DNA of 64,000 bases, from contig CAXULY010000029.1 in NCBI GenBank assembly GCA_964252075.1, forward strand, positions 1-64,000, written 5' to 3'. This stretch comes from an uncultured Deinococcaceae bacterium (GTDB lineage Bacteria > Deinococcota > Deinococci > Deinococcales > Deinococcaceae). A program made the translations under genes and the position numbers. The notes below the pieces were generated by a model. It was not told the DNA's origin. It did not search any database and worked only from the letters and a program-made list of their open reading frames with translations. Each line of letters starts with the position of its first letter. The stretch's first letter is position 1. Of the stretch, positions 16,821 to 29,828 are shown piece after piece.

Positions 16821-16859
16821 GGCCCCAGTGTGCCCCGCCCGCACCACGCACACCGTGAG

Positions 16860-16889
16860 AAAACGCCCCCAGCGAGATCGCTGGGGGCG
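16860..16889 (-). terminator. Intrinsic terminator closing the DUF11 operon
   Basis: Stem CGCCCCCAGCGA/TCGCTGGGGGCG plus TTTT on the minus strand. Confidence 0.8.
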
Positions 16890-16907
16890 CAGAAAAGCCA
16901 GAGACGC

Positions 16908-19900
16908 TTACGGCACCTGCGCCTTAAAGCACACCACACCTTTACCGGTCGAGGCCGCTACCGTCCCCACATTTACCGTGAGGTTCGTGGCGGTCAGGTC
17001 GCCCGCGTCGTCACCACTGGCAGAGGTCAGGGCCGTGCCAGCGGGCGCAGCCGTCGCGCCGCTCGCGAGCGAAGCGCCGTTCGCGTACAGAATGCCCAGG
17101 CCCGCGCCGTAGCCGTTCAGCTGAGCGGGGCCACTGGCGACGATGGTGTCCTTCAGGACCAGACTGGTCGCGTTCCCCGCCCCAGTGTTCGTGTACGCAA
17201 TGCAGTACTCCAGGTATTCGCCCGGCTTACCGACGGCGCCGGCACTGCTGAAGGTTCCAGTGTTGGAACTTAGGCTGGAGCCGATGTTGCGCACATACTT
17301 GGAGAGCGTGACGGACGGCGCCACAACCGTCAGGGTGGTGCGGGTCGGGTCGGACACGCCCGTCACCGTGGGGTCGTCGGTCGGCACGTTGACGCTCTGC
17401 TGCGAGACGACGCCCTGGTTGCTGATCGGGGATGCAACCCCCGAGTTGCCCACCTGCACCTGGAAGGTCACGGTCGCCGTGGCACCTGCCGCGAGCGTTC
17501 CCGCCACCTGCCCCGCGCTGTTGATGAGGGACGCCGTGCCGTAAGGATAGGACGAAGCGTTCAGGTTGGTGCCGTTGAGCGTCGCTGTGTTGGGAATATA
17601 GGTCAGCCCCGAAGGCAGCACATCCAAGAATTTGACATTGGCCGCCGCAACCGTCGTACTCGTGTTCTTGACCGCAATGGTGTAGGTGAGCGTGCCGCCC
17701 AGAGTGGTCGAGCTCGCAGAGACCGTTTTGGTCGCGGTCAGGTTCGGGTTAAAGCCGAAGTCCCGGGACGTGATGCTCGCACCGCCTGTCAGGGTCACGC
17801 TGTATGTCCCGGAGGCAGGGCTGATTAAAGTTGCATTTCCGAGATCAGGGTCGGTCTTGCGGATCGTCGCAGTGTATGGATCCGTGGGCACGTTCAGGAA
17901 GCTGTAGTTGCCGTTGGCGTCCGTGAAAGCTGTGCTGGTGATGCCGCTGCTGCTGTTGGTGAGCGTGACCGGGATGCCAGCGCCGAACCGCGAGTCAGGC
18001 GTGCTGAACGAGCTGCTGTTGTCCATGTCACCGTACACCGTGCCCGAAATGTTGCCCGTGGTGATGCCCGTACAGGTCGTCCACGACAGGTCGTCAAGTG
18101 CCAGGTCGTTGCCACCGCCACCACCGGTGTTGTTGCGGAAACGCACCGTAACCTCGCTGGCCGCGCCGGTGTTGACGAGCAGTGAGAAGTTCTTCCAGAT
18201 GGGCGCGTTGGTGTTGGCGATGTTGCCTGAGGTGAAGATGCTCTGCCCTTCACTGCCGTCGGCGGTCGCGGGGTTGTCGTCATCGTCCACGCCGGTGTAG
18301 TCCACCTCAATGGACACGTTGGGCACGATTCCGGCGTTGTTGGCGATCAGGTTCACGATCCAGCCGCCCACCTCATAGTTGGTATTGGGCGTCACCGCAA
18401 ACTTTTCTTGGTAGAACACGTTCGCGCTCAGATTGGCGTTCACCACCATCATCTGTCCAGTCGCGTTGCCGGTCGTGTGATCGCCAAGCACATGCCAGGC
18501 ACCGTCCTGGCGGTCACTGTCGAAGTTGGTGACTTCATACTCCCCGTCCTCAGGGCTGTAATTGCCTGGGGAAGCCACCTGGGTCCGGGTGTTGTATGTG
18601 TAGCCTGTGGAGCCCAGGGAACCTGTCGCCGCCAGGGTCCTGCGGGTCGGCGGGTTGGTGGACGAGCCAGCTGCCACGCTTCCAAAAGTGCCGTTCAACG
18701 AGAACAGGTTGGTGCCCAGCGTACCGCCATGGACCAAGCACGCCCCCGAAGGCTCAGCGATAAAAGGCATGGTGATGGTCGCGGGTGAAGGGTCCTGCTG
18801 GCCCGCCGCGTCCCTGGCCGCGACCTGAAAGCTGACGGTCAGCGCGCCGTTGCTGGTGGGGTCCACCTGCAGGCTGTTGACCACGTAAGCCGTGATGCAC
18901 TGCCCGGCGCTGACGACGACACTCTGATAGAACAGGGTGGCGTTGGTGGGCAGCGACGTGATGCAGAATGTGCTGCCCGCGCCAAGAGCACCGTCCTCAG
19001 GGTCGGTGCCCGTCAGGGTCGGAACCACGAACCGGCTCGTGCCCGAAGCGTTTTGCTGGCTGCTGGCGGTGGCTGAGGTCGTATCGGGCAGCTGTTCAAT
19101 GCCAAAGTTCTGCGCGGTGACGTTGGCCGCAGCGATGGTCACGGCAAGATTGCCATCAGCAGTGGCGTCCTTGGTGCCGTTGCTGTTCTCACCGGTATTG
19201 ACCCAATTGCTCGGCACGCTGCCCGTGGTTGGAGCGGTGCCGCCCACCGCCACGCTACCGTTCGTGCTGAGGCGCAGGGTGTAGGTGGTGTTGGTCAACA
19301 ACCCCCCGATGGTATAGGTTCCGTCAGTCGCACTGACTGTCGCTTTGCCCGCCACAGTGGTGCCATTCACGGCGTACACGGTCAGACTGCTCGTGCCTGC
19401 ATTCGTTCCAGCTTCACCCGTCGCGGCCTGCACGCCATCGCCATTTATGTCGTCAAAGACCGTTCCAGAGATGCTTGCGGTCACAAGTAGGGACGCACTG
19501 GCTGCTGCAGCGTTGGTTCCACCGGTGGTGTCTAATGCGCTAGCGGCGATAGTGTTGGTGTAGGTACCAACGCTAGAAGCAGTGACGCTCACGGTGATGG
19601 TGCATCCGCCCGCCGGAATCTTGCCTCCAGCATTCAACGTGATGGTACCTGTATTGATGCTAGCTGACACAGTGTTGCCCGTGATGGTGGTGCATGTGCC
19701 GCCCAAGTTGGGGGTGGCGGCAATCACCATGTTGCTGGGCGTGGTGGGAAGGTTATCGGTGAAGGTTGACTGCAGGTACACGGGCGCCAGGTTGGTGTTT
19801 CCTAGCGTGATGGTGAGTGTACTTGTCGCGCCTGGCGCGATGCTGTTAGGCGAAAAGCTCTTGGTGACCGTGGGCGAGTTGGGCAGGGTGGCGCAGGTGC

Positions 19901-20735
19901 CCAGGTCCGTCAGGGAGTCGCTGATGGTGGCACTTGGTGTGGCTCCGGTAACACCTGTAGTGGGATTCAGAGGGTAGATGCCGGGCAGCCCGGTGGTTGG
20001 GCCGGTGGCCGAACTGATCAAGAAGTTGCCGATCCTTGGGTCAATGGAAAGGCCGTTCACTGTGCCCGTCCAAGCCGTCGCAGCTGTGGACTTAATGGCC
20101 ACGGGGCTGGAGAGCAATCCGGTCGTCAGGTCCAGCTTGAACAGATAGGGACCGGCAACACCAGCAGTAGGCGTGGCGGTCGCCACGATGTAAGCCTGCC
20201 CAGCGCTATCGATGGCGAGGTCACCATTAGTGGTAGTGCCCAAGGTGTATCCAGTCGGAGCGGTAAAGGGCGTATAACTACCGCCTACGATGTTACCGCT
20301 TGCATCAACACGACCAAAAGTCTTGTTATTCAAATATACGTAATAGTTTCCTGAAGCGTCTGTGGTTCCACCGACAACCAAAACATTGGTTCCAGCCACT
20401 GTAGGCAGTGGGTTCAGCGTTCCAATACTGGTATCTACTAGAGTATTCGGATCAATATAGCGGACAGTATTGGTGTCCCGGTTGATGTAGTAGATGCGCC
20501 CGTTCGTGGGGCTCTGAGTAATAGCGTTGGAATTGGCCGAGGCAGCTGGAAAAAGCGGCACGATGGTGTTGTTGGTGTAGTTATAGATGCCGATCTGGTT
20601 GCTGGCCGCGCTGGTCATGGTGTAGGTGGCTGTACAGTAGCTCGCGGCAGCCTGGGCTGCGCCCATGAGGCCCAGCGCCACGGGCAGCAACCGCCGCAGC
20701 CGAATGAGGGACGACTTCACTGCATGCAGGTTCAC
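16908..20735 (-). CDS. Large secreted adhesin-like protein (propeller-like N-terminus, SdrD-B-like and DUF11 domains); putative tip subunit
   Basis: GTG start overlaps the upstream stop and has a GGAGG RBS; signal peptide ..LGLMGAAQA; ISGTVFDDINGDG and ISGTVYGD repeats; K..PG...TYTI..N..D.LP DUF11 repeats; Thr/Ser/Gly-rich. Confidence 0.82.
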   Translation of the reverse strand: MNLHAVKSSLIRLRRLLPVALGLMGAAQAAASYCTATYTMTSAASNQIGIYNYTNNTIVPLFPAASANSNAITQSPTNGRIYYINRDTNTVRYIDPNTLVDTSIGTLNPLPTVAGTNVLVVGGTTDASGNYYVYLNNKTFGRVDASGNIVGGSYTPFTAPTGYTLGTTTNGDLAIDSAGQAYIVATATPTAGVAGPYLFKLDLTTGLLSSPVAIKSTAATAWTGTVNGLSIDPRIGNFLISSATGPTTGLPGIYPLNPTTGVTGATPSATISDSLTDLGTCATLPNSPTVTKSFSPNSIAPGATSTLTITLGNTNLAPVYLQSTFTDNLPTTPSNMVIAATPNLGGTCTTITGNTVSASINTGTITLNAGGKIPAGGCTITVSVTASSVGTYTNTIAASALDTTGGTNAAAASASLLVTASISGTVFDDINGDGVQAATGEAGTNAGTSSLTVYAVNGTTVAGKATVSATDGTYTIGGLLTNTTYTLRLSTNGSVAVGGTAPTTGSVPSNWVNTGENSNGTKDATADGNLAVTIAAANVTAQNFGIEQLPDTTSATASSQQNASGTSRFVVPTLTGTDPEDGALGAGSTFCITSLPTNATLFYQSVVVSAGQCITAYVVNSLQVDPTSNGALTVSFQVAARDAAGQQDPSPATITMPFIAEPSGACLVHGGTLGTNLFSLNGTFGSVAAGSSTNPPTRRTLAATGSLGSTGYTYNTRTQVASPGNYSPEDGEYEVTNFDSDRQDGAWHVLGDHTTGNATGQMMVVNANLSANVFYQEKFAVTPNTNYEVGGWIVNLIANNAGIVPNVSIEVDYTGVDDDDNPATADGSEGQSIFTSGNIANTNAPIWKNFSLLVNTGAASEVTVRFRNNTGGGGGNDLALDDLSWTTCTGITTGNISGTVYGDMDNSSSFSTPDSRFGAGIPVTLTNSSSGITSTAFTDANGNYSFLNVPTDPYTATIRKTDPDLGNATLISPASGTYSVTLTGGASITSRDFGFNPNLTATKTVSASSTTLGGTLTYTIAVKNTSTTVAAANVKFLDVLPSGLTYIPNTATLNGTNLNASSYPYGTASLINSAGQVAGTLAAGATATVTFQVQVGNSGVASPISNQGVVSQQSVNVPTDDPTVTGVSDPTRTTLTVVAPSVTLSKYVRNIGSSLSSNTGTFSSAGAVGKPGEYLEYCIAYTNTGAGNATSLVLKDTIVASGPAQLNGYGAGLGILYANGASLASGATAAPAGTALTSASGDDAGDLTATNLTVNVGTVAASTGKGVVCFKAQVP

Positions 20736-23700
20736 TTGTTGCCTCCCTGTTCGTCGAGCAGCAGGTCCAGCCGGAGGTAGGGGCCGGGTCTGGTGAAGGT
20801 GGTGCCGAGGCCGTCGAAGCCCAGCACGTTGTACCCCACGGTCAGCCACGTGCCGGGCAGGGCGCGCAGGCTGCCCTCCAGGCCCAGACCGAAGAGGCTG
20901 GTGCCGGTGGCTGGTTGCACCAGGGCGCGCGCGCTGGCGCCCACGCCAAGGCGGTCGGTCACGTAGTACGTGCCGCCGAGGCTCGGCTGGTAGGTGAAGC
21001 TGCCGGGGTCGTCGAGGAGCACGCGGGCGTCGAGGCCGCCGCGGAGCGCCCAGGTGGCGCGGTGGTACTCGGCGGCGAGCTGCCCCATGAGTTGCGGCTG
21101 GTCACCGGCGAGGCTGCCGTTCTGGTAGCGCAGGTACCCGATGCTGTTCCACGCGCCGTCGCGCCACGCGTACCCGAGGGCGAGTTTCGTGCCGGGGGTG
21201 GCGCTGAGTTCGGTGAGGGCGTCGGCGGTGACGCTGAAGGTGCTGCTGAGGGCGCCGGTGGCGCCGGCGCGCAGGACGGTGCGCCATACGCCGGCGCTGT
21301 AGGCGAGGTCGCCGCCGGCGGTGGCGCTGAGGGTGGTGCTCTGGTAGCGGAGGTCGCTGCCGACGCTGAAGTCGTTCGTGCCGGCGGTCATGTCGCGCAG
21401 GTACGCGCCGCGCAGGCCGACGCTGAAGGTGCTGTTCAGGGGGAGGCTGGTGTCCATGCCGAAGCGGGCGCGGTTGCCGCTGCCGCTGGCGTTGGGGAGG
21501 TCGTACCCGACGGAGAGGTTGGTGCCGCCGAGGGTGGTATCGATGCCGAAGCTCGCGACGCTGCCGGTGTTCCAGTTGAGGTCCTCGGCGAGTTTCAGTT
21601 TGACGTTGGGGGTGAGGGCGTATTTCACGGCGAAGACCGTTTCGGGGTCCACGTTGCCGGTGAAGGGCTGGCTGTGCGTGACGTCGATGTCGAAGGGCGC
21701 GGCGTGGTAGCCGACGCCGAGGAGACCGCTGACGCCCATCTGGTCGCCGAAGCTGTAGCGCAGGCCGCCGCCGACCGTGAAGGGGTTCAGCTGGTAGTCC
21801 ACGCGCGCGGCGAGGTCGCCCTGGTGGCTGTCGGGGCCGCTGGTGTAGGTGCCGCCGAGGCTGGCGCTGAGGCTGGGCGCGAGTTGCTGGCGCAGCTGGG
21901 CGCTGGCGCTGGTGCCGACCGCGATGGGCGCGAGGCCCGCGTAGGTGGCGTCCTGGTACGCGGCGCGCGCGCTGAATTCGGTGCTGCCCGCCTTGCCGCT
22001 CACGTCGGCGCTGGCCTGCAGGCCTCCGCCCTGCGTGAGGACCTGGGCGCTGCCGCTGAGGTTCGCGCCCGCGAAGCTGGCGCGCGCGCCCGCAGTGAGT
22101 TTGCCGTCGAGGTTCACGGCGGCGACGCCGACGCTCGTCGCGCCGTTCGTGTACTTGGCCTGCGCGCCGTACGCGAGGGCGCGGTTCGCGCCGCCGTCGT
22201 TCAGGCGGTACGCGGCCTGCACCACGAGGGTGTTGAGTTGCGCGTCGGTGCGGGCGAGGGCCTGGGAGAGCGTGACCACGCCGGTGCCGGTGTCGAGGCT
22301 GTAGTCGGCGTAGCGGGTGAGCGTGCGGCGAGAGAGTTCCTGGCCCGTCACGCGGTCGAGCGTGAGGAGTTCCAGCGTCTCGGAGTCCGGGACGATGTCG
22401 CCGTGCGCGAGGCGCAGGAGGCGCGTGCCGTTCGGGGTGAGGCGCTCGCCGGTGATCTGGTCGCTGGAGATGAGGGCCGCGAAGCCGCCCACCTGCACGT
22501 TGCCTTTGGTGCTGAAGCTGAGCGCCGTGACGCTCTCCCCGAGGGGCAGCACGTCGATGGGGGTGGGGCTCAGGCGGTACTGCGCGCTGAAGGCGGGGTG
22601 GTCGTAGCGGAAGGCGATGGGGTCCTGACCTTCGAGCGGCACGCTTTCGGTGCTGGCGTCGCCGTACAGGGGGTAGCGGGTGTTGGGGTTGGTGCTGGTG
22701 GGCAGGCCGTCCTTGTTGCCCGCGGCGTACAGTTTGCCGCTCCCGAGGGTGCCCTCGAAGTAGCCTTTGGCGCTCCAATGGAAGTCCACGGCGCCGCCGC
22801 TGAGGCCGACGGTGGCGCTCGCGGCGCCCACGCCGAGCGCGCCGACGTCGGGGCGGATGGGCAGACTGACGCGCTGCACGCGGTCACTCACCGCGAACTC
22901 CAGTTCGAGGGTGGTGGGCGCGCTCTGCGGCGGGAGGATCAGTTCGCCCTCGCCGTCCTTGAGCGCCACCTGGTAGCCGCCCTGGCTGGGGTCGGCGTCC
23001 GCCTGCGCGGACTCGATGGAGGAGCGCACCGTGACGGTGGGTTGCGCGGTGGTGAGGCCGGAGGCGTCGAGGACGCGCAGCTTGAAGCGCAGCGGGGTGC
23101 TGCCGTCCGCGAGGCCCTGCACGGCCTGCACGTCCACGCGCTCGGCCTGCCCGGCGTAGTACACCTTGACCTGCTCGCCCCCCAGCACGAGGGTGTTCAC
23201 GCCCGTCTTGAGGCGAATCCCGAAGTACGTGACGCGTTCGGTGCCGGCGCTGCTGTCCACGTCGCGCTGCCCGATGGCGCTGTCCGGCAGGGCCTCGCCG
23301 TTGATGCGCGGCCCGAGGGTGGCGCCGCTGGGGCCCTGCACCACGACCGTGATGCGGTCGCGGTCGCGGATGACAGTGCCGTCCAGGGGGAGGCGCAGGG
23401 CGCCGGGGTTCTCGGCGGTCTGCCCGCTGGCGGTGGGCGTTGCGGCGGCGTAGTCCTGGAGGTCGAAGGGCCCCTGCAGGACCTCCTGGCGGTCGCGGGG
23501 GTAGCGCGCGAAGAGCGCGGGCAGCGGCAGGGCGCCGAGCGCGTCGGTGTGCGTGACGCGGTACGTGATCACGCCGCGCCCGGTGGGCGTGATCGGCCAG
23601 TACAGGCGCCCGCCCTTGCCGACCAGCGGGTCGGGGATGGGCTGGCCGTTCAGGGCGCTGGTGCCGGGCAGGTACGTCGCGCCTGCGGGGAGCGTCTGGG

Positions 23701-23887
23701 CGATCACCAGGGCGGTCGCCTCGACGGGCGCGTCGAAGGGAACCTCCAGGCGAGACTCGCGCGTGACGGCGTTCGTCGCGTCGGTGGTCGCGGGTGCGCT
23801 CAGGGGGGCGGCGGGGACGGTGGGCGCGTTCTGAGCGGCGGCCCCCACCAGCAGCGAGGCCATCAGCAGGGCAAGGGCGCCTCTCAC
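20732..23887 (-). CDS. Large outer-membrane beta-barrel protein with periplasmic Ig-like domains (usher-like)
   Basis: Signal peptide; YPLYGDAS motif; roughly 500 C-terminal residues of alternating amphipathic strands ending WLTVGYNVLGF..GPYLRLDLLLDE. Confidence 0.75.
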   Translation of the reverse strand: MRGALALLMASLLVGAAAQNAPTVPAAPLSAPATTDATNAVTRESRLEVPFDAPVEATALVIAQTLPAGATYLPGTSALNGQPIPDPLVGKGGRLYWPITPTGRGVITYRVTHTDALGALPLPALFARYPRDRQEVLQGPFDLQDYAAATPTASGQTAENPGALRLPLDGTVIRDRDRITVVVQGPSGATLGPRINGEALPDSAIGQRDVDSSAGTERVTYFGIRLKTGVNTLVLGGEQVKVYYAGQAERVDVQAVQGLADGSTPLRFKLRVLDASGLTTAQPTVTVRSSIESAQADADPSQGGYQVALKDGEGELILPPQSAPTTLELEFAVSDRVQRVSLPIRPDVGALGVGAASATVGLSGGAVDFHWSAKGYFEGTLGSGKLYAAGNKDGLPTSTNPNTRYPLYGDASTESVPLEGQDPIAFRYDHPAFSAQYRLSPTPIDVLPLGESVTALSFSTKGNVQVGGFAALISSDQITGERLTPNGTRLLRLAHGDIVPDSETLELLTLDRVTGQELSRRTLTRYADYSLDTGTGVVTLSQALARTDAQLNTLVVQAAYRLNDGGANRALAYGAQAKYTNGATSVGVAAVNLDGKLTAGARASFAGANLSGSAQVLTQGGGLQASADVSGKAGSTEFSARAAYQDATYAGLAPIAVGTSASAQLRQQLAPSLSASLGGTYTSGPDSHQGDLAARVDYQLNPFTVGGGLRYSFGDQMGVSGLLGVGYHAAPFDIDVTHSQPFTGNVDPETVFAVKYALTPNVKLKLAEDLNWNTGSVASFGIDTTLGGTNLSVGYDLPNASGSGNRARFGMDTSLPLNSTFSVGLRGAYLRDMTAGTNDFSVGSDLRYQSTTLSATAGGDLAYSAGVWRTVLRAGATGALSSTFSVTADALTELSATPGTKLALGYAWRDGAWNSIGYLRYQNGSLAGDQPQLMGQLAAEYHRATWALRGGLDARVLLDDPGSFTYQPSLGGTYYVTDRLGVGASARALVQPATGTSLFGLGLEGSLRALPGTWLTVGYNVLGFDGLGTTFTRPGPYLRLDLLLDEQGGNK

Positions 23888-26637
23888 GGGTTCCTCCAGG
23901 TGACGTTGGGATCGGTGACGGCGCGCTCGCTGGCCCCGTCGAAGTGGAAGTGGTAGGTGAGGGTGGTGCCCTCGGCGGTGACGCCCACGAGGTCCAGCAC
24001 GTTCTGACCGTCCGTGAGGGTGGCGCCTGCGGGCAGCGGGTCATCCAGGTGCAGCGGGCCGCTGGCGGGGTTGGAGGTGAGGGTGAGGGTGACGGTGTAG
24101 CGGCCGTCCTCGTCCTGCGTGACCTGCTTGCGCACGGTGAGCGGCCCAACGCGCAGGGTGGTGTCGCGGAAGGCGCTCGCCTCGCCCTCCAGGGCGGCCA
24201 GCGGGAAGTCCACGCTGGTGAGGCCGCGCGCGTACACGCCCCGGCTGCCGGGTCGCCCGCCGTCCTGCGGCAGGCTGAGCGGCGCGTACGGCACGCTCGC
24301 GGGGTCCAGGCGCAGGGCGGTGAAGCCCTCCGGGACGTTCGCGAAGTGGTAGCGGCCCGACGCGTCCGTCAGCACGATGCGGCCGTCCGCGAGCACGATG
24401 CGGGCGCGCTCGATGGGGGTGTCGAGGTCCGCCTGGAAGACACCGTCGCGGTTGCGGTCCACGAACACCACCCCGATGAGGTCCGCGAGGGTGGAGAACA
24501 TACCGGGGCGCAACTTCAGGCGCGCGCGCGCCTCGTTCGAGGCGACCACGGAGCCGTTCACGCCCTGCCCCATCACACTCACGACGTTCACGAGCTCACC
24601 GTTCGCTTCGGGCGTGACGCGCACGGCGTAGGTCAGCACGACCTCGCCCTGCGGGGCGAGCGCACCGAGCGTCCAGGTGAGGACGCGGCCCGCGACCTGC
24701 GGGTCGCCGAGCGGCTGGCCGCCCAGCTGCGCGCTGCCGGGGATGTACGTCACGCCGGCGGGCAGGGTGTCCGTGATGGTGAGGGTGTTCAGGTGGCCGG
24801 CCTGCGAGAGGTTGCGGATGTGCACCGTGTAATCCAGGCGGTCCCCGACGGTCGCGTCGAGCGGCGTGACGCTCTTGCTCACGGCGAGCGCCGCGGACCA
24901 CACGGGGCTCGTCACGGTGGGGGAACCGAGCGGCGCGGGGAACTGATCGCCGCCCAGCGTGAAGGTGTTGGTGATGCGGTCGCCGTCCTTGGCGTCCGCC
25001 GCGACGGTCGCCTGAATGGTCAGGCGGCGCGTCTCGCCCGGCGCGAGCGACGCGACGGTCCAGACCACGGCGCCATCCTGCAGGGCGCCGCCATCGGAGG
25101 CGCTCACGAAGGTCAGGTCGCTGGACAGCGGGTCGCGGATCACGACGCCCGTGAGGGGCACGTCGTAGGGGTTGTGCACGCTGAGGGTGTAGGTGAGGGC
25201 CTGACCCGCGGTGACCTGACCCGTGGGGTCCACGGTCTTCTGGAGTTCCGGCAGGCGGGACTCAATGCGGCTGATGGTGTCGGTGGTGCTGTTCGTCGTG
25301 CCGCGCGTTCCCGTCGCCGTGAGGACCAGCTTCAGGGCGTCGCTGCCCGCGGGCTTCACGCACACCTGGAAGCTCAGGGTCTGACCGGGCTCCAGGTGGA
25401 CGGGCTGCGCGATGGGCGCGCCGTCCGTGGTGAGGAGGCTCACGTCGCCGGAGCCCGCCGCGAGGGTGGGCGCCACCGTAAAGTCATCGGTGACGTTCCC
25501 AGTGTTCTGGATGGTCTGCGTGAAGCACACGGTCTGCCCCACCACGCCGAAGTCCTTCGACTGCGTGTCCTGCGCGCTGCCCTCGGGCGCCGTGGGGTTG
25601 CCGACCGGCCCGAGCGCGACGCCCGGCGTGAAGCGCACGTCCAGGGTCGCGCCCGCCTGCCCGCCCGGAACGCCGCTGGACGTGACGGTCGCGAGGTTCC
25701 GCAGCGTCTTGTTCTCCGCGGCGGCGGAGGTAAGCAGCTGGAAGGTCAAGGTGGCGCGCGCGCCCGGCGCGAGGCTCGGCACGCGCAGGCGAATGCCCGC
25801 CACCGCGCCGCCCGCGCTGGCGGAGTACGTCGCGCCGTCCGCGCTGTACTCCACGGTGCCGACGCTGGCGCTCGCGCTGCCCGCCACGAAGGTCGCGCCG
25901 GACAGCGCGGCGGTGTTCAGGGGGTCCGTGACGATCACTTCACGCGACGCGCCCTTGCCGCCGTTCGTGACAGTCAGCGTGACGGTGCTGGCCTCGCCGG
26001 GCTTCACGAGCGCCGGGCTGAAGGACTTGCTGAGGGCCAGGGCGGGCGGCTGGCCCACCAGGACCGCCGCGTAGTTGTTCGTGTCGCCGGCGCCATCACC
26101 GCACGAGGCGTTCAGGCTGACGAACGCCCCATCCCGGTCGCTGTCGGCGGTGGAGACGACCATCAGCAGCTTCGCGGACTGATCGGCGTCCAGCGTGACG
26201 CTGGACGCCTCGGGCTCGCCCGCATCGAGCGCGCCATTGCCGTTGCTGTCCAGGTAGATCTTGACGCCCGGCTGGAAGGCCGAGGTGCGGTCAACCACGC
26301 TGGCGAGCGCGAAGGTGTTGCTCTGGTTGCCCGCGTTCAGCACGCTGTACGAGAAGATCGCCTGCTCTCCCGGCAGGATACTCGCCGTCTGACCGGGCTG
26401 GTCGGGCGTGCCGTCCGGCGTCACGCTCACCGCGCACACGCCACTCACGGTGGTCGTGACCGTGGTGGACACGTCCGAGATGGCCGCGCCGTCCGCATCA
26501 ATGGCGGCGACGCTCGCCTGGTTCGTGATGACCGTATCGGCTGGCGTTCCGCCAGCGAACGCCGCGCTGTGCAGGCTCAGACTGAGCGCTGCCAGACACG
26601 GCGCGAGCACGGTGATGAGGGTGGACTGTTTGCGCAC
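23884..26637 (-). CDS. Secreted multi-DUF11 protein with an SdrD-B-like C-terminal domain; putative base or adaptor subunit
   Basis: GGAGG RBS and GTG 26637; signal ..SAAFA; three complete DUF11 repeats; GVVFVDRNRDG..TDASGRYHF. Confidence 0.82.
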   Translation of the reverse strand: MRKQSTLITVLAPCLAALSLSLHSAAFAGGTPADTVITNQASVAAIDADGAAISDVSTTVTTTVSGVCAVSVTPDGTPDQPGQTASILPGEQAIFSYSVLNAGNQSNTFALASVVDRTSAFQPGVKIYLDSNGNGALDAGEPEASSVTLDADQSAKLLMVVSTADSDRDGAFVSLNASCGDGAGDTNNYAAVLVGQPPALALSKSFSPALVKPGEASTVTLTVTNGGKGASREVIVTDPLNTAALSGATFVAGSASASVGTVEYSADGATYSASAGGAVAGIRLRVPSLAPGARATLTFQLLTSAAAENKTLRNLATVTSSGVPGGQAGATLDVRFTPGVALGPVGNPTAPEGSAQDTQSKDFGVVGQTVCFTQTIQNTGNVTDDFTVAPTLAAGSGDVSLLTTDGAPIAQPVHLEPGQTLSFQVCVKPAGSDALKLVLTATGTRGTTNSTTDTISRIESRLPELQKTVDPTGQVTAGQALTYTLSVHNPYDVPLTGVVIRDPLSSDLTFVSASDGGALQDGAVVWTVASLAPGETRRLTIQATVAADAKDGDRITNTFTLGGDQFPAPLGSPTVTSPVWSAALAVSKSVTPLDATVGDRLDYTVHIRNLSQAGHLNTLTITDTLPAGVTYIPGSAQLGGQPLGDPQVAGRVLTWTLGALAPQGEVVLTYAVRVTPEANGELVNVVSVMGQGVNGSVVASNEARARLKLRPGMFSTLADLIGVVFVDRNRDGVFQADLDTPIERARIVLADGRIVLTDASGRYHFANVPEGFTALRLDPASVPYAPLSLPQDGGRPGSRGVYARGLTSVDFPLAALEGEASAFRDTTLRVGPLTVRKQVTQDEDGRYTVTLTLTSNPASGPLHLDDPLPAGATLTDGQNVLDLVGVTAEGTTLTYHFHFDGASERAVTDPNVTWRNP

Positions 26638-26736
26638 GGGGCCTCCGGGAACAGCGCTCAGTGGGGCGCGGGAAAGGGCGGGGTACTCAGGCTCAAAACG
26701 GTGTTCTGCTGTTGGGGTGACGCCAAAGGTGAGGTG

Positions 26737-26762
26737 GGCGCGCACCATTGGTGGTGCGCGCC
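26737..26762. promoter_or_regulatory. Intra-operon stem-loop after the putative major subunit gene
   Basis: 11-bp stem GGCGCGCACCA/TGGTGCGCGCC, 8 nt after the stop, with no U-tract. Confidence 0.6.
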
Positions 26763-26770
26763 GGGATGGG

Positions 26771-28792
26771 TCAGTTGACGGTGACCTTGAAGGTCTCGGT
26801 GATGCCCTGACCGGGCTTGAGGATGTCGAGGGTCGAGATGGTGTTGTCGTTGTTGGTGTCGATGCCGATCTCCACCAGCTGGCCTGCCGTGGGGGCCGTC
26901 GTGGGGGTCGTGGAGGTCTGCCAGGCACCGCCATTGAAGCGGTACAGCAGTTTGTAGCCGGTGGTGCCGTAGGCGTTGGTGTCGGTGATGCTGGCCGTCA
27001 CGCTCGCGAAGGTGGTGTTCGTGGGCACCGTGTCCTTGAGGATGTAGTTGGTGAGGTTGCTGTTGTTGGTGTTGCTGGCCGCGATGGTGTAGGTCAAGGT
27101 GGCGCCAGGAGCCGCGTTCGTGAGGTCAACCGTCTTGGCGGGCTTGTAGGAGTTCGCCGTGATCTGAACGGTGAACTTGTCGTTGTTGTCCGTCGAGGTG
27201 GCGCCCGTCGTGGCGGAGGTCGCCGTTTGCGTGAGGGTGTACGTGCCAGGCAGGGTGTTTTGCGGGACGTTGACCTGAGCGACCACGCAGTACGTGGCGC
27301 CCGCGGCGAGCGCGCCCGTGCTGGTGATGGCGGTGGTGTTGTCCGCCACGCCGTCGCAGTTGGCGTCCGCGTAGTACGTGACGGGCGTAGCGGTGGTGCC
27401 GGTCGGGGTGGTGATGTTCACCGTGCCCGTCAAGCTGAAGGTGTCCGGCGCGGTGCCGTTGTTCTTGACGACCATCGGGAAGGTGGTAGGGGTGGTGCCC
27501 GTGGCGGCGCCCGTGGTGGTCACCGTGTTGTTCGGCGTGCCGGGCGTCGGGGTGCCGTTCACGCTGTCGGTGAACTGCACGCTCGGCAGGTTCACGATGT
27601 TGGTGGTGGTGTCCGTGCCGCCTGTGCCGGTGCCGCCGTTCGTGGTCAGGCTGTTCTCACTGGTGCTGGTCACGGTGGCCGTGAAGGGCGCGGTGGGGCT
27701 GGTGGGAACCGAGCCGGCGGGGTACGTCACCGTGACGTAGAAGGTGTACTCGCCTGCCAGTCCCGGATTGACGGTGGGCGTCTTGGTGATGGGGCTGGTG
27801 CCAGCGGCATCGGAGGAGATGGTCACGGTCGCGCCCGTCGGGGCGTTGCTCAGGGCCGCCGTCAGGTCGAAGATGTCCGGGCGGTTGCCGTTGTTGACCA
27901 CCGAGTTCTTGAAGGTCACGCTGGTGCTGGTGGTGGTGGCCTGCGCGTTCTGGCTGTCGCCGTTGTAGTTGATGGTCACGCCGCCCTGGGTGTAGGGCGT
28001 GACGGCGGTGGTGTTCGCGGGGTCGAGTTTGCCGTCCGCGTCCGCATCGGTGTTTGGGCCGACCTTGCCCGCGTCGGTGCGGGAGAGCGTGACCTGGTTG
28101 AAGTTGTTGGCGTCCTGGTTCAGGTAGGGGGCGGTGGTGCCCGCAATGGCGACGGTCGAGGTGTAGCTGGTGCCGGTGGCGCCTGCGGGGTCATAGGTGC
28201 CGGAGCCCACCGGGTCGGCGCCCAGTTTGGTGCCGTTGGCCGAGTTGGCGCCGGTGGCGGGGACCACATACCGCTGAATGAGCTTGACGGTCGCGTTACC
28301 GGTGGTGTTGTTCGCCACCACAACGCTGGTGACCGCCGTGGCACCTTCGGTGCCATCCAGCACACCGTTGCCGTTGGTGTCCACGAAGTACTGAACGCCC
28401 GTGATGCCGCTGGTGGTGCTGAGGGCACCGTTCACCGAGTACAGGGTGGACAGCGTCACCTGAACGGGTGTGTTGCCCGTGTTCGTGACGGTGTACGGGA
28501 AATCCACGGTCGCGCCTGGCAGCGTGTTCGTCTGGCTCTGGCCGGGGGTGGCGGGGTGCGGCCCGAGGTCGGCACTGGAGTCGTTGGGGGTGATGGTGAA
28601 GGTCGGGACGGCGCTCACCGTGGTGGTCACGGTGTTGGAGTCGATCGGTGTCTGGGCCGTGCCGGTCGCGTCATTGAAGGTGGCGGTGGCGGTGTTGCTG
28701 ATCTGCGTGCCAGCGGAAGTGCCGCCGGCGGCGAGGGCAGAGCCGGCGGCCAGGGCGGCCATCACGGCGATGAGCTTGCTGTACTTGTTCAC
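26771..28792 (-). CDS. Secreted Thr-rich Ig-fold/DUF11 protein; putative major filament subunit
   Basis: GGAGGA RBS and GTG 28792; signal peptide ..AAGSALA; N-terminal AGTQISNTATATF; repeated V.N.GN..D.F.L units; C-terminal DUF11 ending FKVTVN. Confidence 0.85.
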   Translation of the reverse strand: MNKYSKLIAVMAALAAGSALAAGGTSAGTQISNTATATFNDATGTAQTPIDSNTVTTTVSAVPTFTITPNDSSADLGPHPATPGQSQTNTLPGATVDFPYTVTNTGNTPVQVTLSTLYSVNGALSTTSGITGVQYFVDTNGNGVLDGTEGATAVTSVVVANNTTGNATVKLIQRYVVPATGANSANGTKLGADPVGSGTYDPAGATGTSYTSTVAIAGTTAPYLNQDANNFNQVTLSRTDAGKVGPNTDADADGKLDPANTTAVTPYTQGGVTINYNGDSQNAQATTTSTSVTFKNSVVNNGNRPDIFDLTAALSNAPTGATVTISSDAAGTSPITKTPTVNPGLAGEYTFYVTVTYPAGSVPTSPTAPFTATVTSTSENSLTTNGGTGTGGTDTTTNIVNLPSVQFTDSVNGTPTPGTPNNTVTTTGAATGTTPTTFPMVVKNNGTAPDTFSLTGTVNITTPTGTTATPVTYYADANCDGVADNTTAITSTGALAAGATYCVVAQVNVPQNTLPGTYTLTQTATSATTGATSTDNNDKFTVQITANSYKPAKTVDLTNAAPGATLTYTIAASNTNNSNLTNYILKDTVPTNTTFASVTASITDTNAYGTTGYKLLYRFNGGAWQTSTTPTTAPTAGQLVEIGIDTNNDNTISTLDILKPGQGITETFKVTVN

Positions 28793-28824
28793 TGTTCCTC
28801 CTGAAAAGGGCTGGGCGGCGGGCA

Positions 28825-29325
28825 TCATTGGACTTTCACGCGAAGGTTGAGCTTGAGGGCCTGAGCGCCACCGAAGGTGGGCAGGGTCCAGCGGACGTTG
28901 GTGTACTCGGTGGGGGAAACAGTGACCTCCTTGGTGACGCTCTTGCCGTTCTCAACCTTCGTGACGGTGCGTTTGAGCGGCGGCACACCATAGGTCTTGC
29001 CACCGTCGAAGCTGAATTCCGTGGTGGCGCCCTGAGGTGCGCCCGTCTGGGACATGTAGGTGGTGCCCTTGGGTACAGGGAGTTGCAGGCGCACGTTCGT
29101 CAGGGCGGCGCTGCCCGTGTTGCTGACCTGCAGTTGCTGCTCCAGCACGTTGCCGGGCGTGGTTTCCTTGGGGGACGTCACGAGGGCTTCCTGGGTCTTG
29201 CCGTCCTTGGTGATGGTCTGCACGAGGAACTGGCTGAGCACCAGCTTCAGCGGGCTGCTGGCCTGCTGCGCAGCGGCGATGCCCGCGAGGGCGAGGGCGA
29301 CGGAGAGGAAGCGGCGTTGGGGCAT
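28825..29325 (-). CDS. Small secreted single-DUF11-like protein; putative chaperone
   Basis: Signal peptide; PGNVLEQQLQVSNTG..L.LPVPKGTTY..FSFDGGKTYG..YTNVRWT..LRVKVQ; RBS AAGGAG. Confidence 0.8.
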   Translation of the reverse strand: MPQRRFLSVALALAGIAAAQQASSPLKLVLSQFLVQTITKDGKTQEALVTSPKETTPGNVLEQQLQVSNTGSAALTNVRLQLPVPKGTTYMSQTGAPQGATTEFSFDGGKTYGVPPLKRTVTKVENGKSVTKEVTVSPTEYTNVRWTLPTFGGAQALKLNLRVKVQ

Positions 29326-29393
29326 GGTGTTCTCCTTGGGGGCGGGGTGGCCTGCATGACAAGAGGTGCGACCGAAGACAGCAGGGGGTGCCT

Positions 29394-29469
29394 GTCAGCC
29401 GTGGTCGCACCACTGGCTCCACGTCTGACAGGTGCCCGAATACACCAGACGCTTCATTGCCTTGCTGAC
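29394..29469 (-). ncRNA. c-di-GMP-II riboswitch
   Basis: Minus strand reads GTCAGC-AAGGCAATGAA-GCGTCTGG-TGTATTCGGGCACCTG-TCAGACGT-GGAGCCAGTGGTGCGACC-ACG-GCTGAC. It shows the P1 and P2 helices, the AUGAA/GGAG kink-turn-like element and the GCACC/GGTGC pseudoknot of the class II consensus as I recall it. Confidence 0.85.
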
Positions 29470-29772
29470 GAAAGTCTATGGACCCAGGTCTTACATTTCT
29501 CTTACCTTTTGTCATTTCTCACGAAACTTAGCTTAACGAGGCCGTCGGGCTTCGCATTTTGTGCTGCCCGAGGGGATAAGAAGTAGGGAAAATATCCCGT
29601 TGTTGTCGCTGCGTCTTCCTCACGAGGGCTTCACGCGTCCGTCAGGTGCTCAACGGATTCTCATTTAAGCGAGCCCACTCAGGGAACATACACGCATCCG
29701 GCAGATTTGGATGTTGCATGGCGCAGCGCGCAACTCTTTCGCGTGCTGGAGGCATTCCAGCTCACAGCGCAC

Positions 29773-29809
29773 AATAAAAATGAGGCGGACCCTGACCGGG
29801 TCCGCCTCA
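29773..29809 (-). terminator. Intrinsic terminator after carA
   Basis: TGAGGCGGACCC/GGGTCCGCCTCA followed by TTTTTATT. Confidence 0.85.
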
Positions 29810-29828
29810 CCTAACCTTCACTAAAATT

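Follow-up and report, generated by a model that had tools for sequence, protein, structure and literature searches.

Split CLIPPER domains in a riboswitch-led operon of Deinococcota: a candidate surface fibre whose subunits would complete each other

Chaperone-usher fibres are assembled, without ATP, at a barrel in the outer membrane that is dedicated to them. Their subunits have an incomplete immunoglobulin (Ig)-like fold, which the next subunit completes with its N-terminal extension; such an extension is missing from the tip adhesin, and the terminator is unable to take one up (PMC13721041, in part). For BsaA of Clostridium perfringens, a member of the TasA family, a mechanism termed 'donor-strand exchange and lock' has been described, in which an Asn-Lys isopeptide bond is supported by mutants (PMC11580942, in part). 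The DUF11 domain, renamed CLIPPER and typical of the stalks of fibrillar adhesins, has been crystallized: it is a CnaA-like sandwich of nine strands with an intramolecular isopeptide bond between Lys715 and Asn806 and with Asp748 nearby, a triad in which the Lys lies in strand 1, the Asp at K+33 and the Asn at K+91 (PMC12617251, in part). DUF11 domains arranged like beads on a string also make up the surface filaments called grappling hooks, formed by GhlA in Litorilinea and GhpA in Aureispira (bioRxiv 10.1101/2025.08.19.671072, in part). The subject here is an operon of five genes, A to E, carried by an uncultured Deinococcaceae bacterium (GenBank assembly GCA_964252075.1, contig CAXULY010000029.1, positions 1 to 64,000; this whole stretch of 64,000 nucleotides is called the window). 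Its products carry CLIPPER domains that are cut into complementary pieces and distributed over different proteins. The reading preferred here, held to be probable though well short of certain, is that of a surface fibre under the control of cyclic di-GMP (c-di-GMP) whose subunits complete each other's split CLIPPER domains. The genes are:

28825-29325, minus strand: gene A, 166 residues, ATG start
26771-28828, minus strand: gene B, 685 residues, 22% Thr
23884-26637, minus strand: gene C, 917 residues, likely start a GTG behind GGAGG (longest open reading frame to 26934)
20732-23887, minus strand: gene D, 1051 residues
16908-20735, minus strand: gene E, 1275 residues, likely start the GTG at 20735 that overlaps the stop of D (longest open reading frame to 20849)

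A, B, C and E belong to the CLIPPER/DUF11 family above curated cut-offs, by TIGR01451 in all four cases and by PF01345 for C and E. The completeness of their domains was judged with a hidden Markov model (HMM) of 128 positions, built from 50 complete internal domains of C homologues. The homologues compared come from 40 loci fetched around D matches, or 41 loci counting the window, in which A is found 26 times, a protein at the position of B 36 times, one at the position of C 40 times and a complete open reading frame (ORF) downstream of D, at the position of E, 26 times. These counts are lower bounds, since contig ends or the 17-kb fetch cut several loci, and one of the proteins counted as B (locus L030) is the front half of a frameshifted C. 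When the last 45 residues of every protein were searched with the 128-position HMM, the match ended at positions 90-92 in 24 of 26 A proteins, at 91-92 in 25 of 36 B-position proteins and at 90-91 in 20 of 26 E-position proteins, and in these cases the stop codon comes 0-1 residues past the end of the match. The C tails differ, their match ending ~19-20 residues ahead of the stop. The C-terminal ends read R-x-Q-V-[KR] in A, F-x-V-x-V-[KNQR] in B and C-F-x3-5 in the downstream proteins. Protein A of the window, a single domain of 145 residues that falls short of the final strands, covers HMM positions 9-91. The mature N-terminus of B aligns to positions 94-126 (independent E-value 0.0038) and that of C behaves likewise, the alignments starting at 93-94. 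The terminal cores of A, B and E miss their last two strands, and the domain is cut between strands 7 and 8.

The other side of the cut has a signature of its own. Behind the signal peptide, a donor motif, T/S-x-A-G-T-x-I-x-N-x-A ... S-N-x-V-x-T-x-V, is shared by 26 B-position and 31 C-position proteins of the 40 loci. An HMM of this donor hairpin matches 0 of 26 A proteins, 0 of 26 E-position proteins and just one of 41 D proteins, which is a C-D fusion; its matches to 32 of 36 B and 36 of 40 C proteins hold by construction, the HMM having been built from those sequences. At the mature N-terminus of C in the window, the donor scores 40.2 with this HMM. The hairpin is the most conserved part of B: an alignment of 21 sequences has 25 invariant columns, and residues 33-67 account for 13 of them, with Asn45 and Asn65 among these. 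The segments concerned are:

28604-28729, minus strand: donor hairpin of B, residues 34-75, mature N-terminus
26774-27157, minus strand: acceptor half-domain of B, residues 558-685, C-terminus
26428-26556, minus strand: donor hairpin of C, residues 28-70, mature N-terminus
23887-23946, minus strand: tail of C, TDP-x4-WR-[YN], kept in most of the 40 C-position proteins
16911-17318, minus strand: acceptor half-domain of E, residues ~1140-1275, conserved C-terminus

Comparison of the downstream genes shows that E is conserved between loci only in its C-terminal 130-280 residues, and the module K..RN / EYC / D / CF-x(3-5)-stop is present in 23 of the 26 E-position proteins. The same E-type acceptor half-domain (K..RN, EYC, D, CF-x4-stop) forms the C-terminus of P0265, an orphan secreted protein of 598 residues encoded elsewhere in the genome (contig C2, 30470-32266, plus strand), directly behind a c-di-GMP-II riboswitch. 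P0265 matches no Pfam family, and its head of ~480 residues, rich in Leu, Val and Ala, is unrelated to that of E; the protein is probably an alternative tip for the same fibre. Judged by these motifs, E, A and P0265 are acceptor-only, B is both donor and acceptor, and C is donor-only.

The fit of the halves was computed for the B-B pair, with residues 550-685 of B as acceptor, residues 34-80 as donor and an alignment of 21 rows. The interface score ipSAE reached 0.85, 0.84 and 0.83 in three runs, and 0.00 in the best of 3 controls; of 157 solved complexes, 116 reach the mark applied to this score, as do 2 of 215 mismatched pairs, counts that are rough ones here, since our own alignment was used. 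The runs agreed in at least 94% of their contacts, and the partner had a predicted local distance difference test value (pLDDT) of at least 82. Once the acceptor was replaced, the pLDDT of the donor was 34, and that of the acceptor went from 86 to 70-71 with unrelated partners. In the predicted complex, donor residues 43-54 pair with acceptor residues 592-598, and donor residues 62-75 lie against 561-569 and 578-584, a pattern by which the hairpin takes the place of strands 8 and 9. In the B monomer model the hairpin is separated from the first domain by a linker, residues 84-96, with pLDDT below 50.

The residues of the CLIPPER triad can be followed across the split. In the 128-position HMM the triad falls on K6, D40 and N101. 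The acceptor of B offers K565 and D599 (K+34), with Asp or Glu at 599 in 21 of 21 sequences, and N101 corresponds to N45 of the donor, which is invariant in all 21. Another residue, Asn65, which the register of the complex (567-67, 569-69) at first seemed to place opposite Lys565, had been considered as the bond former and was dropped in favour of N45 after comparison with the CLIPPER crystal. E-type acceptors conserve the Lys (L-x-K-x-x-R-N), the Asp and two Cys. Because Lys and Asp occupy the triad positions in the acceptors of both B and E, an intermolecular Lys-Asn isopeptide bond probably locks these joints, with no need of a sortase. The internal domains of C hold Lys, Asp and Asn in cis. 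In the alignment, Leu replaces the Asp in A, whose first strands hold no conserved Lys; since it lacks both residues, A should be able to bind a hairpin and unable to lock it.

Protein D, the product of the gene between C and E, has no match to a Pfam or NCBIfam family. Its AlphaFold2 model, computed on an alignment of 43 sequences (mean pLDDT 87.8, predicted template modelling score 0.69), comprises the following parts:

residues 14-40: disordered stretch
22850-23761, minus strand: three Ig-like domains, residues 43-346, Z 8.9-10.2 to glycosidase beta-sandwich domains
20753-22840, minus strand: beta-barrel, residues 350-1045, with long antiparallel strands over 351-1045

DSSP assigns 32 consecutive strands to residues 553-1045, 3 to 351-391 and 5 to 424-483; the short strands at 490-540 could be an inserted subdomain, and we estimate from the model that the barrel has ~35-40 strands over ~700 residues. 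All strong structure matches of D are transmembrane barrels. Alignments with porins of 16-18 strands span residues 350..1044 (Z 13-14, 220-260 residues), so that the first and last strands are adjacent and the barrel is single and closed. The model thus presents D, with confidence, as a single-chain barrel, which in principle would be wide enough to pass folded Ig domains. No specific structural relative of D was found: the usher PapC (7lhg_C) matches with Z 11.5, a root-mean-square deviation (rmsd) of 16.1 Å and 339 aligned residues, below the porins at Z ~14; LptD reaches Z 10-11 (rmsd ~18 Å), MtrB 12.8 and TonB-dependent receptors 10-12.8, so that all four score like ordinary porins, and Foldseek TM-scores are at most 0.17 on the query.

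D is linked to the split domains by its neighbours and its relatives. Among 265 proteins (264 D-family matches and P0265), five (P0031, P0134, P0140, P0141 and P0147) combine a signal peptide and a C-type donor hairpin with a D barrel at the end, and other long relatives of D carry up to seven DUF11 repeats ahead of the barrel. The overlap of genes C and D, together with these natural C-D fusions, indicates that the proximal end of the fibre would sit on the barrel protein.

Control by c-di-GMP is suggested by the leader of gene A, where a c-di-GMP-II riboswitch is matched above threshold over the full aptamer and upstream of the gene:

29390-29473, minus strand: c-di-GMP-II aptamer (RF01786), 60.5 bits against a gathering cut-off of 53.5, model positions 1-84 of 84
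29365-29373, minus strand: candidate switching-helix segment of 9 nucleotides, a perfect complement of the conserved 3' segment of the aptamer (29403-29411)

The aptamer ends 65 nucleotides before the ATG of gene A. Leader positions 29360-29366, which overlap the candidate segment, are partly complementary to the Shine-Dalgarno sequence at 29330-29337 (6 of 7 bases), and these complementarities suggest translational control; the minimum-energy fold of the leader is no better than that of shuffled sequences (z -0.75). Among the genomes of 61 relatives, 44 contain a D match, and 23 of these 44 have a c-di-GMP-II match on the same strand, 5.3-9.5 kb upstream of it (the two lists of matches were compared by hand). 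In the same set of relatives, the riboswitch is present at loci with the short form of D. Where a genome has several copies, it often accompanies the second copy of D, which is ~44% identical. The genome itself holds five c-di-GMP-II riboswitches, all above threshold. Besides the one in the window, the RF01786 matches (loci L053-L056) are:

C2, 30354-30435
C30, 54439-54523
C19, 23399-23483
C23, 37435-37518

One of the further riboswitches precedes two small ORFs of no known family and then two ABC exporter genes; another is followed by a family-less ORF of 364 residues and a PAS-GAF-GGDEF-EAL protein, and another by a subtilase (S8) and a Big_7 / Glucodextran_B Ig-repeat protein.

The system is widespread in its phylum. 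Relatives of D number 740 at E≤1e-3 among 1.84 billion representatives, the closest being 79% identical; those with names are all from Deinococcus, under labels that say little or contradict each other (hypothetical, DUF11 protein, 'TonB-dependent receptor', 'autotransporter', 'RHS'). The barrel is present in 195 of 301 genomes sampled from the phylum Deinococcota and in 32 of 55 genera; among high-quality genomes it occurs in 178 of 260, and within the family of the window in 103 of 111. Two or three copies in one genome are common. The order A-B-C-D-downstream gene is constant across loci, at identities within each family of 41-53% for A, C and D and ~30% for B. Most Deinococcus homologues of D are ~1600 residues long and have ~550 extra N-terminal residues (L013-L036 and others, for example L025, 5821-7560), a region that opens with the motif I-S-T-S-L-P-L-T-S-V-G-D ... 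Y-Y-G-D-E-x-Y-D and is missing from the short form in the window; P0153, an example of the long form, has no Pfam match at E≤1e-4. Some loci are damaged: C lies in two frames in L030 (G015, C4), A is in two pieces in L035 (G021, C43), and one D homologue has an in-frame TAG (G038, C1, 2097564-2100521). A search of genome contigs for related loci with D and with P0134 found nothing, and the relatives of P0134 are metagenomic. A search of sequencing runs for the operon listed no RNA run that holds it, and small shares of its words are present in five metagenome runs. Atlas clusters in which Vulcanimicrobiota, Deinococcota and Fidelibacterota are the most frequent taxa score up to 0.91 and are leads only.

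Within the window, whose G+C content is ~70%, the five co-oriented genes lie within 16908-29325, in the order A-B-C-D-E on the minus strand, and the riboswitch extends the unit to 29473. At its other end stands a terminator:

16858-16890, minus strand: intrinsic terminator, a 12-bp GC stem and a 4-nucleotide loop, then UUUUCU

This terminator has a folding energy of -27.4 kcal/mol (z -4.88), a value matched by 0 of 200 shuffles. Housekeeping genes flank the operon, encoding the small chain of carbamoyl-phosphate synthase, two GNAT acetyltransferases and argininosuccinate lyase on one side and UPF0114 and DUF3197 proteins on the other, and the preceding gene has its own terminator at 29778-29812; given these flanks and that terminator, the five genes form a self-contained unit. 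Much of this layout had been described in the original prediction, made from the letters and ORFs of the window: the coordinates, the RF01786 match and the terminator fold agree with its five co-oriented genes bounded by a riboswitch and a terminator, and the recurrence of the same gene order across Deinococcota answers its concern that the set might not co-occur elsewhere. The coupling of the last three genes by GTGA, which it also proposed, is seen at the C/D and D/E overlaps, to which an ATGA overlap of A and B can be added; B and C are separated by a gap of ~130 nucleotides. Its assignment of signal peptides to all five proteins is in keeping with the basic N-terminus and following hydrophobic stretch that can be read from each sequence. 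Motif and profile searches of the five proteins likewise uphold its statement that sortase, LPXTG, prepilin motif, ATPase and a recognisable PapC/PapD are missing. By motif, none of the five has a lipobox, a prepilin motif, a Walker A motif or a C-terminal LPXTG, the only LPXTG matches being internal chance ones at B189 and C493.

The family matches of the four CLIPPER proteins, for which the cut-offs are 24.6 bits (PF01345), 24 (TIGR01451) and 30 (TIGR04226), are:

A: TIGR01451 27.3 bits, one DUF11-type repeat; PF01345 23.8 bits, just under the cut-off
B: TIGR01451 42.5 bits, DUF11-type repeat; PF01345 22.5 bits, just under the cut-off
C: DUF11 (PF01345) 145.1 bits in 3 stretches; TIGR01451 114.2 bits; TIGR04226 60.8 bits; SdrD_B
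E: DUF7933 87.5 bits; PF01345 42.0 bits; TIGR01451 65.7 bits; TIGR04226 31.9 bits; SdrD_B

The AlphaFold2 monomer model of B (pLDDT 77.6) has Ig-like domains at residues ~72-250, 250-415, 416-557 and 558-685; structure searches with it returned generic Ig chains only and revealed no packing partner for the hairpin. A sequence search of the PDB with C gave 0 matches. As read from sequence only, the head of E contains repeated G-x-x-Y-Y/F-I/V-type segments at residues ~30-285, which look like those of a beta-propeller, and a jelly-roll-like segment between SdrD_B-type domains. Heads similar to that of E occur in 3 of the 40 fetched loci (L028, L050 and L051).

These parts can be arranged into a pathway. 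After export by Sec, B and C would expose the last two CLIPPER strands as a free N-terminal hairpin, which carries the bond-forming Asn and would insert into the open core of A, B or E to complete its fold. The tip would be an acceptor-only protein (E, P0265 or A), the shaft one or more copies of B, and the base C, which as a donor-only protein would end the chain. A spontaneous Lys-Asn isopeptide bond would lock the joints at B and E without a sortase, and A would bind the hairpin reversibly, either capping donors not yet assembled or forming an inert tip. C would be held at D, which would serve as both exit and anchor. We infer that B polymerises with itself, that the bond is covalent, that a filament forms and that D is an assembly platform; how the subunits are ordered, what role and topology D has and in which direction regulation runs are inferred as well. 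That the operon represents a further class of pilus, an enzyme-free covalent fibre of diderms with natural Tag/Catcher pairs, interchangeable tips, an inert cap, a barrel of ~35-40 strands and a c-di-GMP switch, is given a little under an even chance.

The nearest parallel is with chaperone-usher pili, which share completion in trans by an N-terminal donor, a tip without an extension and a barrel encoded in the operon. The relationship is one of analogy, not of membership. An usher has 24 strands, a plug and N- and C-domains, whereas D has ~35-40 strands by our estimate and no match to the Usher family; the operon has no gene for a two-domain chaperone of the PapD type; a hairpin of two strands from a CnaA-like CLIPPER domain is donated in place of a single strand; a covalent joint is probable; and the subunits are multi-domain chains of 685-1275 residues. 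The original prediction of a pilus with chaperone-usher logic therefore stands in part. Its tip, shaft and base agree with the pattern of donors and acceptors, and the barrel fold that it foresaw for D is recovered by AlphaFold2 and by the structure matches. Its chaperone and usher are not supported in the form proposed: protein A is not PapD-like and, as a single acceptor-type half-domain, cannot donate a strand, and D has no usher-specific similarity, PapC ranking below ordinary porins and the barrel being far above 24 strands.

Autotransporters differ in having a 12-strand barrel, or a 16-strand TpsB barrel with POTRA domains, in place of the ~700-residue barrel found here, and the order of Ig domains before the barrel, like that of the C-D fusions, matches the passenger-barrel order in outline only; no autotransporter, POTRA or ShlB family matches any of the five proteins. 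Sortase-assembled pili of the RrgB and Spy0128 type are also covalent fibres of isopeptide-stabilised Cna-type domains, a likeness extended by TIGR04226 in C and E, but they need a sortase and a C-terminal LPXTG, neither of which was found here, and the present host is a diderm. In the engineered SpyTag/SpyCatcher pair, CnaB2 has been split into a strand with one reactive residue and a truncated domain with the other two, which bond spontaneously. That pair is man-made and derives from another domain, whereas the joints described here would be a natural counterpart used for assembly. B9T28_05395 of Acinetobacter silvestris, one of the adhesins of Gram-negative bacteria in which such domains make up the stalk, shares the CLIPPER domain and its triad (K+33/K+91 there; K+34 and an aligned Asn here), but its bond is intramolecular, within one polypeptide, and here the halves lie on different proteins (PMC12617251, in part); neither split domains nor trans-complementation is mentioned in the abstract and sections 2.3-2.4 of that paper. 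BsaA, the nearest precedent for the bond, likewise inserts an N-terminal segment into the sheet of the next monomer and uses an acid-catalysed Asn-Lys lock without sortase, as proposed here, but it has a TasA/camelysin fold, a single domain, a disordered loop as donor, a Gram-positive host and no barrel (PMC11580942, in part). The marks of the TasA/BsaA group (TasA/camelysin fold, N-E-K triad and a SipW-type signal peptidase) are not those of the present proteins, whose fold is of the CLIPPER type; Peptidase_M73/TasA has no match in the five. Grappling hooks consist of one giant polypeptide, copies of which are bundled sideways, with no head-to-tail joining, split domain or dedicated barrel (bioRxiv 10.1101/2025.08.19.671072, in part). 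Each of the two principles of the assembly pathway has a precedent; such an operon, split DUF11 domains or such a Deinococcus fibre are undescribed in the full-text literature searched, a body of text outside which most subscription journals lie.

The other explanations differ in how much of this arrangement they keep. The main alternative retains the joints and drops the polymerisation of B: one tip, one B and one C would make an adhesin of fixed composition, a stalk of ~100 nm at D. One copy of each protein would satisfy the donor and acceptor logic, B, C and E are in themselves long Ig-like chains, the complex fold cannot separate a B-B joint from a B-E or C-B joint, and in the Litorilinea grappling-hook protein a single DUF11 polypeptide spans the filament (bioRxiv 10.1101/2025.08.19.671072, in part). 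Such an adhesin is nevertheless considered unlikely, since the donor and acceptor of B fit each other (0.84), the defining property of a polymerising subunit, and since three kinds of acceptor (A, B and E) face two kinds of donor (B and C), so that a strict 1:1:1 ratio would leave acceptors unfilled. A more radical proposal denies the joints altogether: independent DUF11 proteins would stand beside a porin-like neighbour, the split being a matter of domain boundaries and the hairpins packing in cis. Pfam DUF11 matches do often break off around profile position 98 of 114, those to internal domains included, and the hairpin of the B monomer is modelled at pLDDT ~80 without a partner. Yet A and E have no hairpin (0 of 26 each) and C has no open core, which leaves them no completion in cis; three unrelated protein contexts, in dozens of genomes, share one HMM position for the stop codon; and the hairpin of B is set apart by the poorly ordered linker, a lone donor reaching only pLDDT 34. 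We regard this proposal as very improbable. Still less credible, to the point of being nearly dismissed, is the idea that a known pathway has diverged here, be it that of chaperone-usher, sortase-assembled, type IV or type V pili. The polarity of the subunits is as in chaperone-usher pili, TIGR04226, named 'fimbrial isopeptide', is found in C and E, and PapD_N occurs elsewhere in the genome, but features of an usher, PapD, a sortase or a prepilin are missing from the operon. In the genome (99.88% complete), neither sortase (PF04203; controls positive in 3 Gram-positive genomes) nor usher (PF00577; E. coli control positive) has a match, and among the five operon proteins there is none to the PapD families; against the model of D, moreover, PapC does no better than porins, and the barrel has far too many strands. 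The PapD_N match itself (C6, 136413-136781, plus strand, 59.1 bits, E 1.8e-15), far from the window and with a positive control in D. radiodurans too, may belong to an archaic chaperone-usher system with a divergent usher.

Several points weigh against a surface fibre as such, and some of them favour placing the chain inside the cell envelope. The support for the fibre is wholly computational, from the split, its position and its conservation to the complementary fold, the barrel, synteny and the riboswitch. The complex prediction shows that two pieces make one domain, not that B prefers B over E, A or C, nor that a polymer forms, and its score may partly reflect what the model knows of intact CLIPPER domains. 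In the B monomer model the hairpin strands, 42-49 and 62-70, are at pLDDT ~80 without a partner, so the hairpin of B might cap its own protein in cis. Not every B sequence keeps the Lys in its column (15 of 21 do as aligned, 4 have a Lys in a shifted strand and 2 have none nearby), and the donor of C in the window keeps the Asn at the bond position and has Thr at the second, non-bonding Asn position. A D match is missing from 106 of the 301 phylum genomes, D bears no specific resemblance to an usher, and the fibre scheme requires that B and E somehow pass the outer membrane. The ordinary topology of outer-membrane proteins would place the N-terminal Ig domains of D in the periplasm, along with the stalk of the C-D fusions. 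In P0128, a distant relative of D with 2722 residues, an OmpA-family peptidoglycan-binding domain (residues 1205-1305, 101 bits) lies between N-terminal DUF11 repeats and the D-like part; together with ordinary topology, this leaves a stalk that threads the barrel or else a fibre that is not external. The same two observations, with the finding from profile and motif searches that the operon encodes no export energy source or secretin, speak for a tether in the periplasm or the thick envelope of the Deinococcus type, which would link D to inner layers or decorate it from inside. The heads of E-position proteins vary over a conserved assembly module, however, as exposed tips that bind ligands typically do; c-di-GMP control is in keeping with adhesion; and CLIPPER domains are described as stalks of surface adhesins (PMC12617251, in part). 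An envelope tether therefore appears quite improbable.

If the surface fibre is real, it would be a pilus pathway of diderms whose parts are non-homologous to those of the chaperone-usher, type IV, curli, type V and sortase systems, and it would combine donor-strand completion at an outer-membrane barrel with spontaneous isopeptide locking, so far known separately. Its donors and acceptors would be natural, co-evolved Tag/Catcher pairs for protein engineering, and D would provide a very large single-chain barrel for studying the folding of outer-membrane proteins and the export of folded ones. The joint could be reconstituted from two small recombinant pieces, and the genus Deinococcus includes genetically tractable strains. 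The fibre would also give a concrete output to the many c-di-GMP-II riboswitches of Deinococcota and, as 195 of 301 genomes have the barrel, would rank as a major surface structure of this phylum that has been overlooked.

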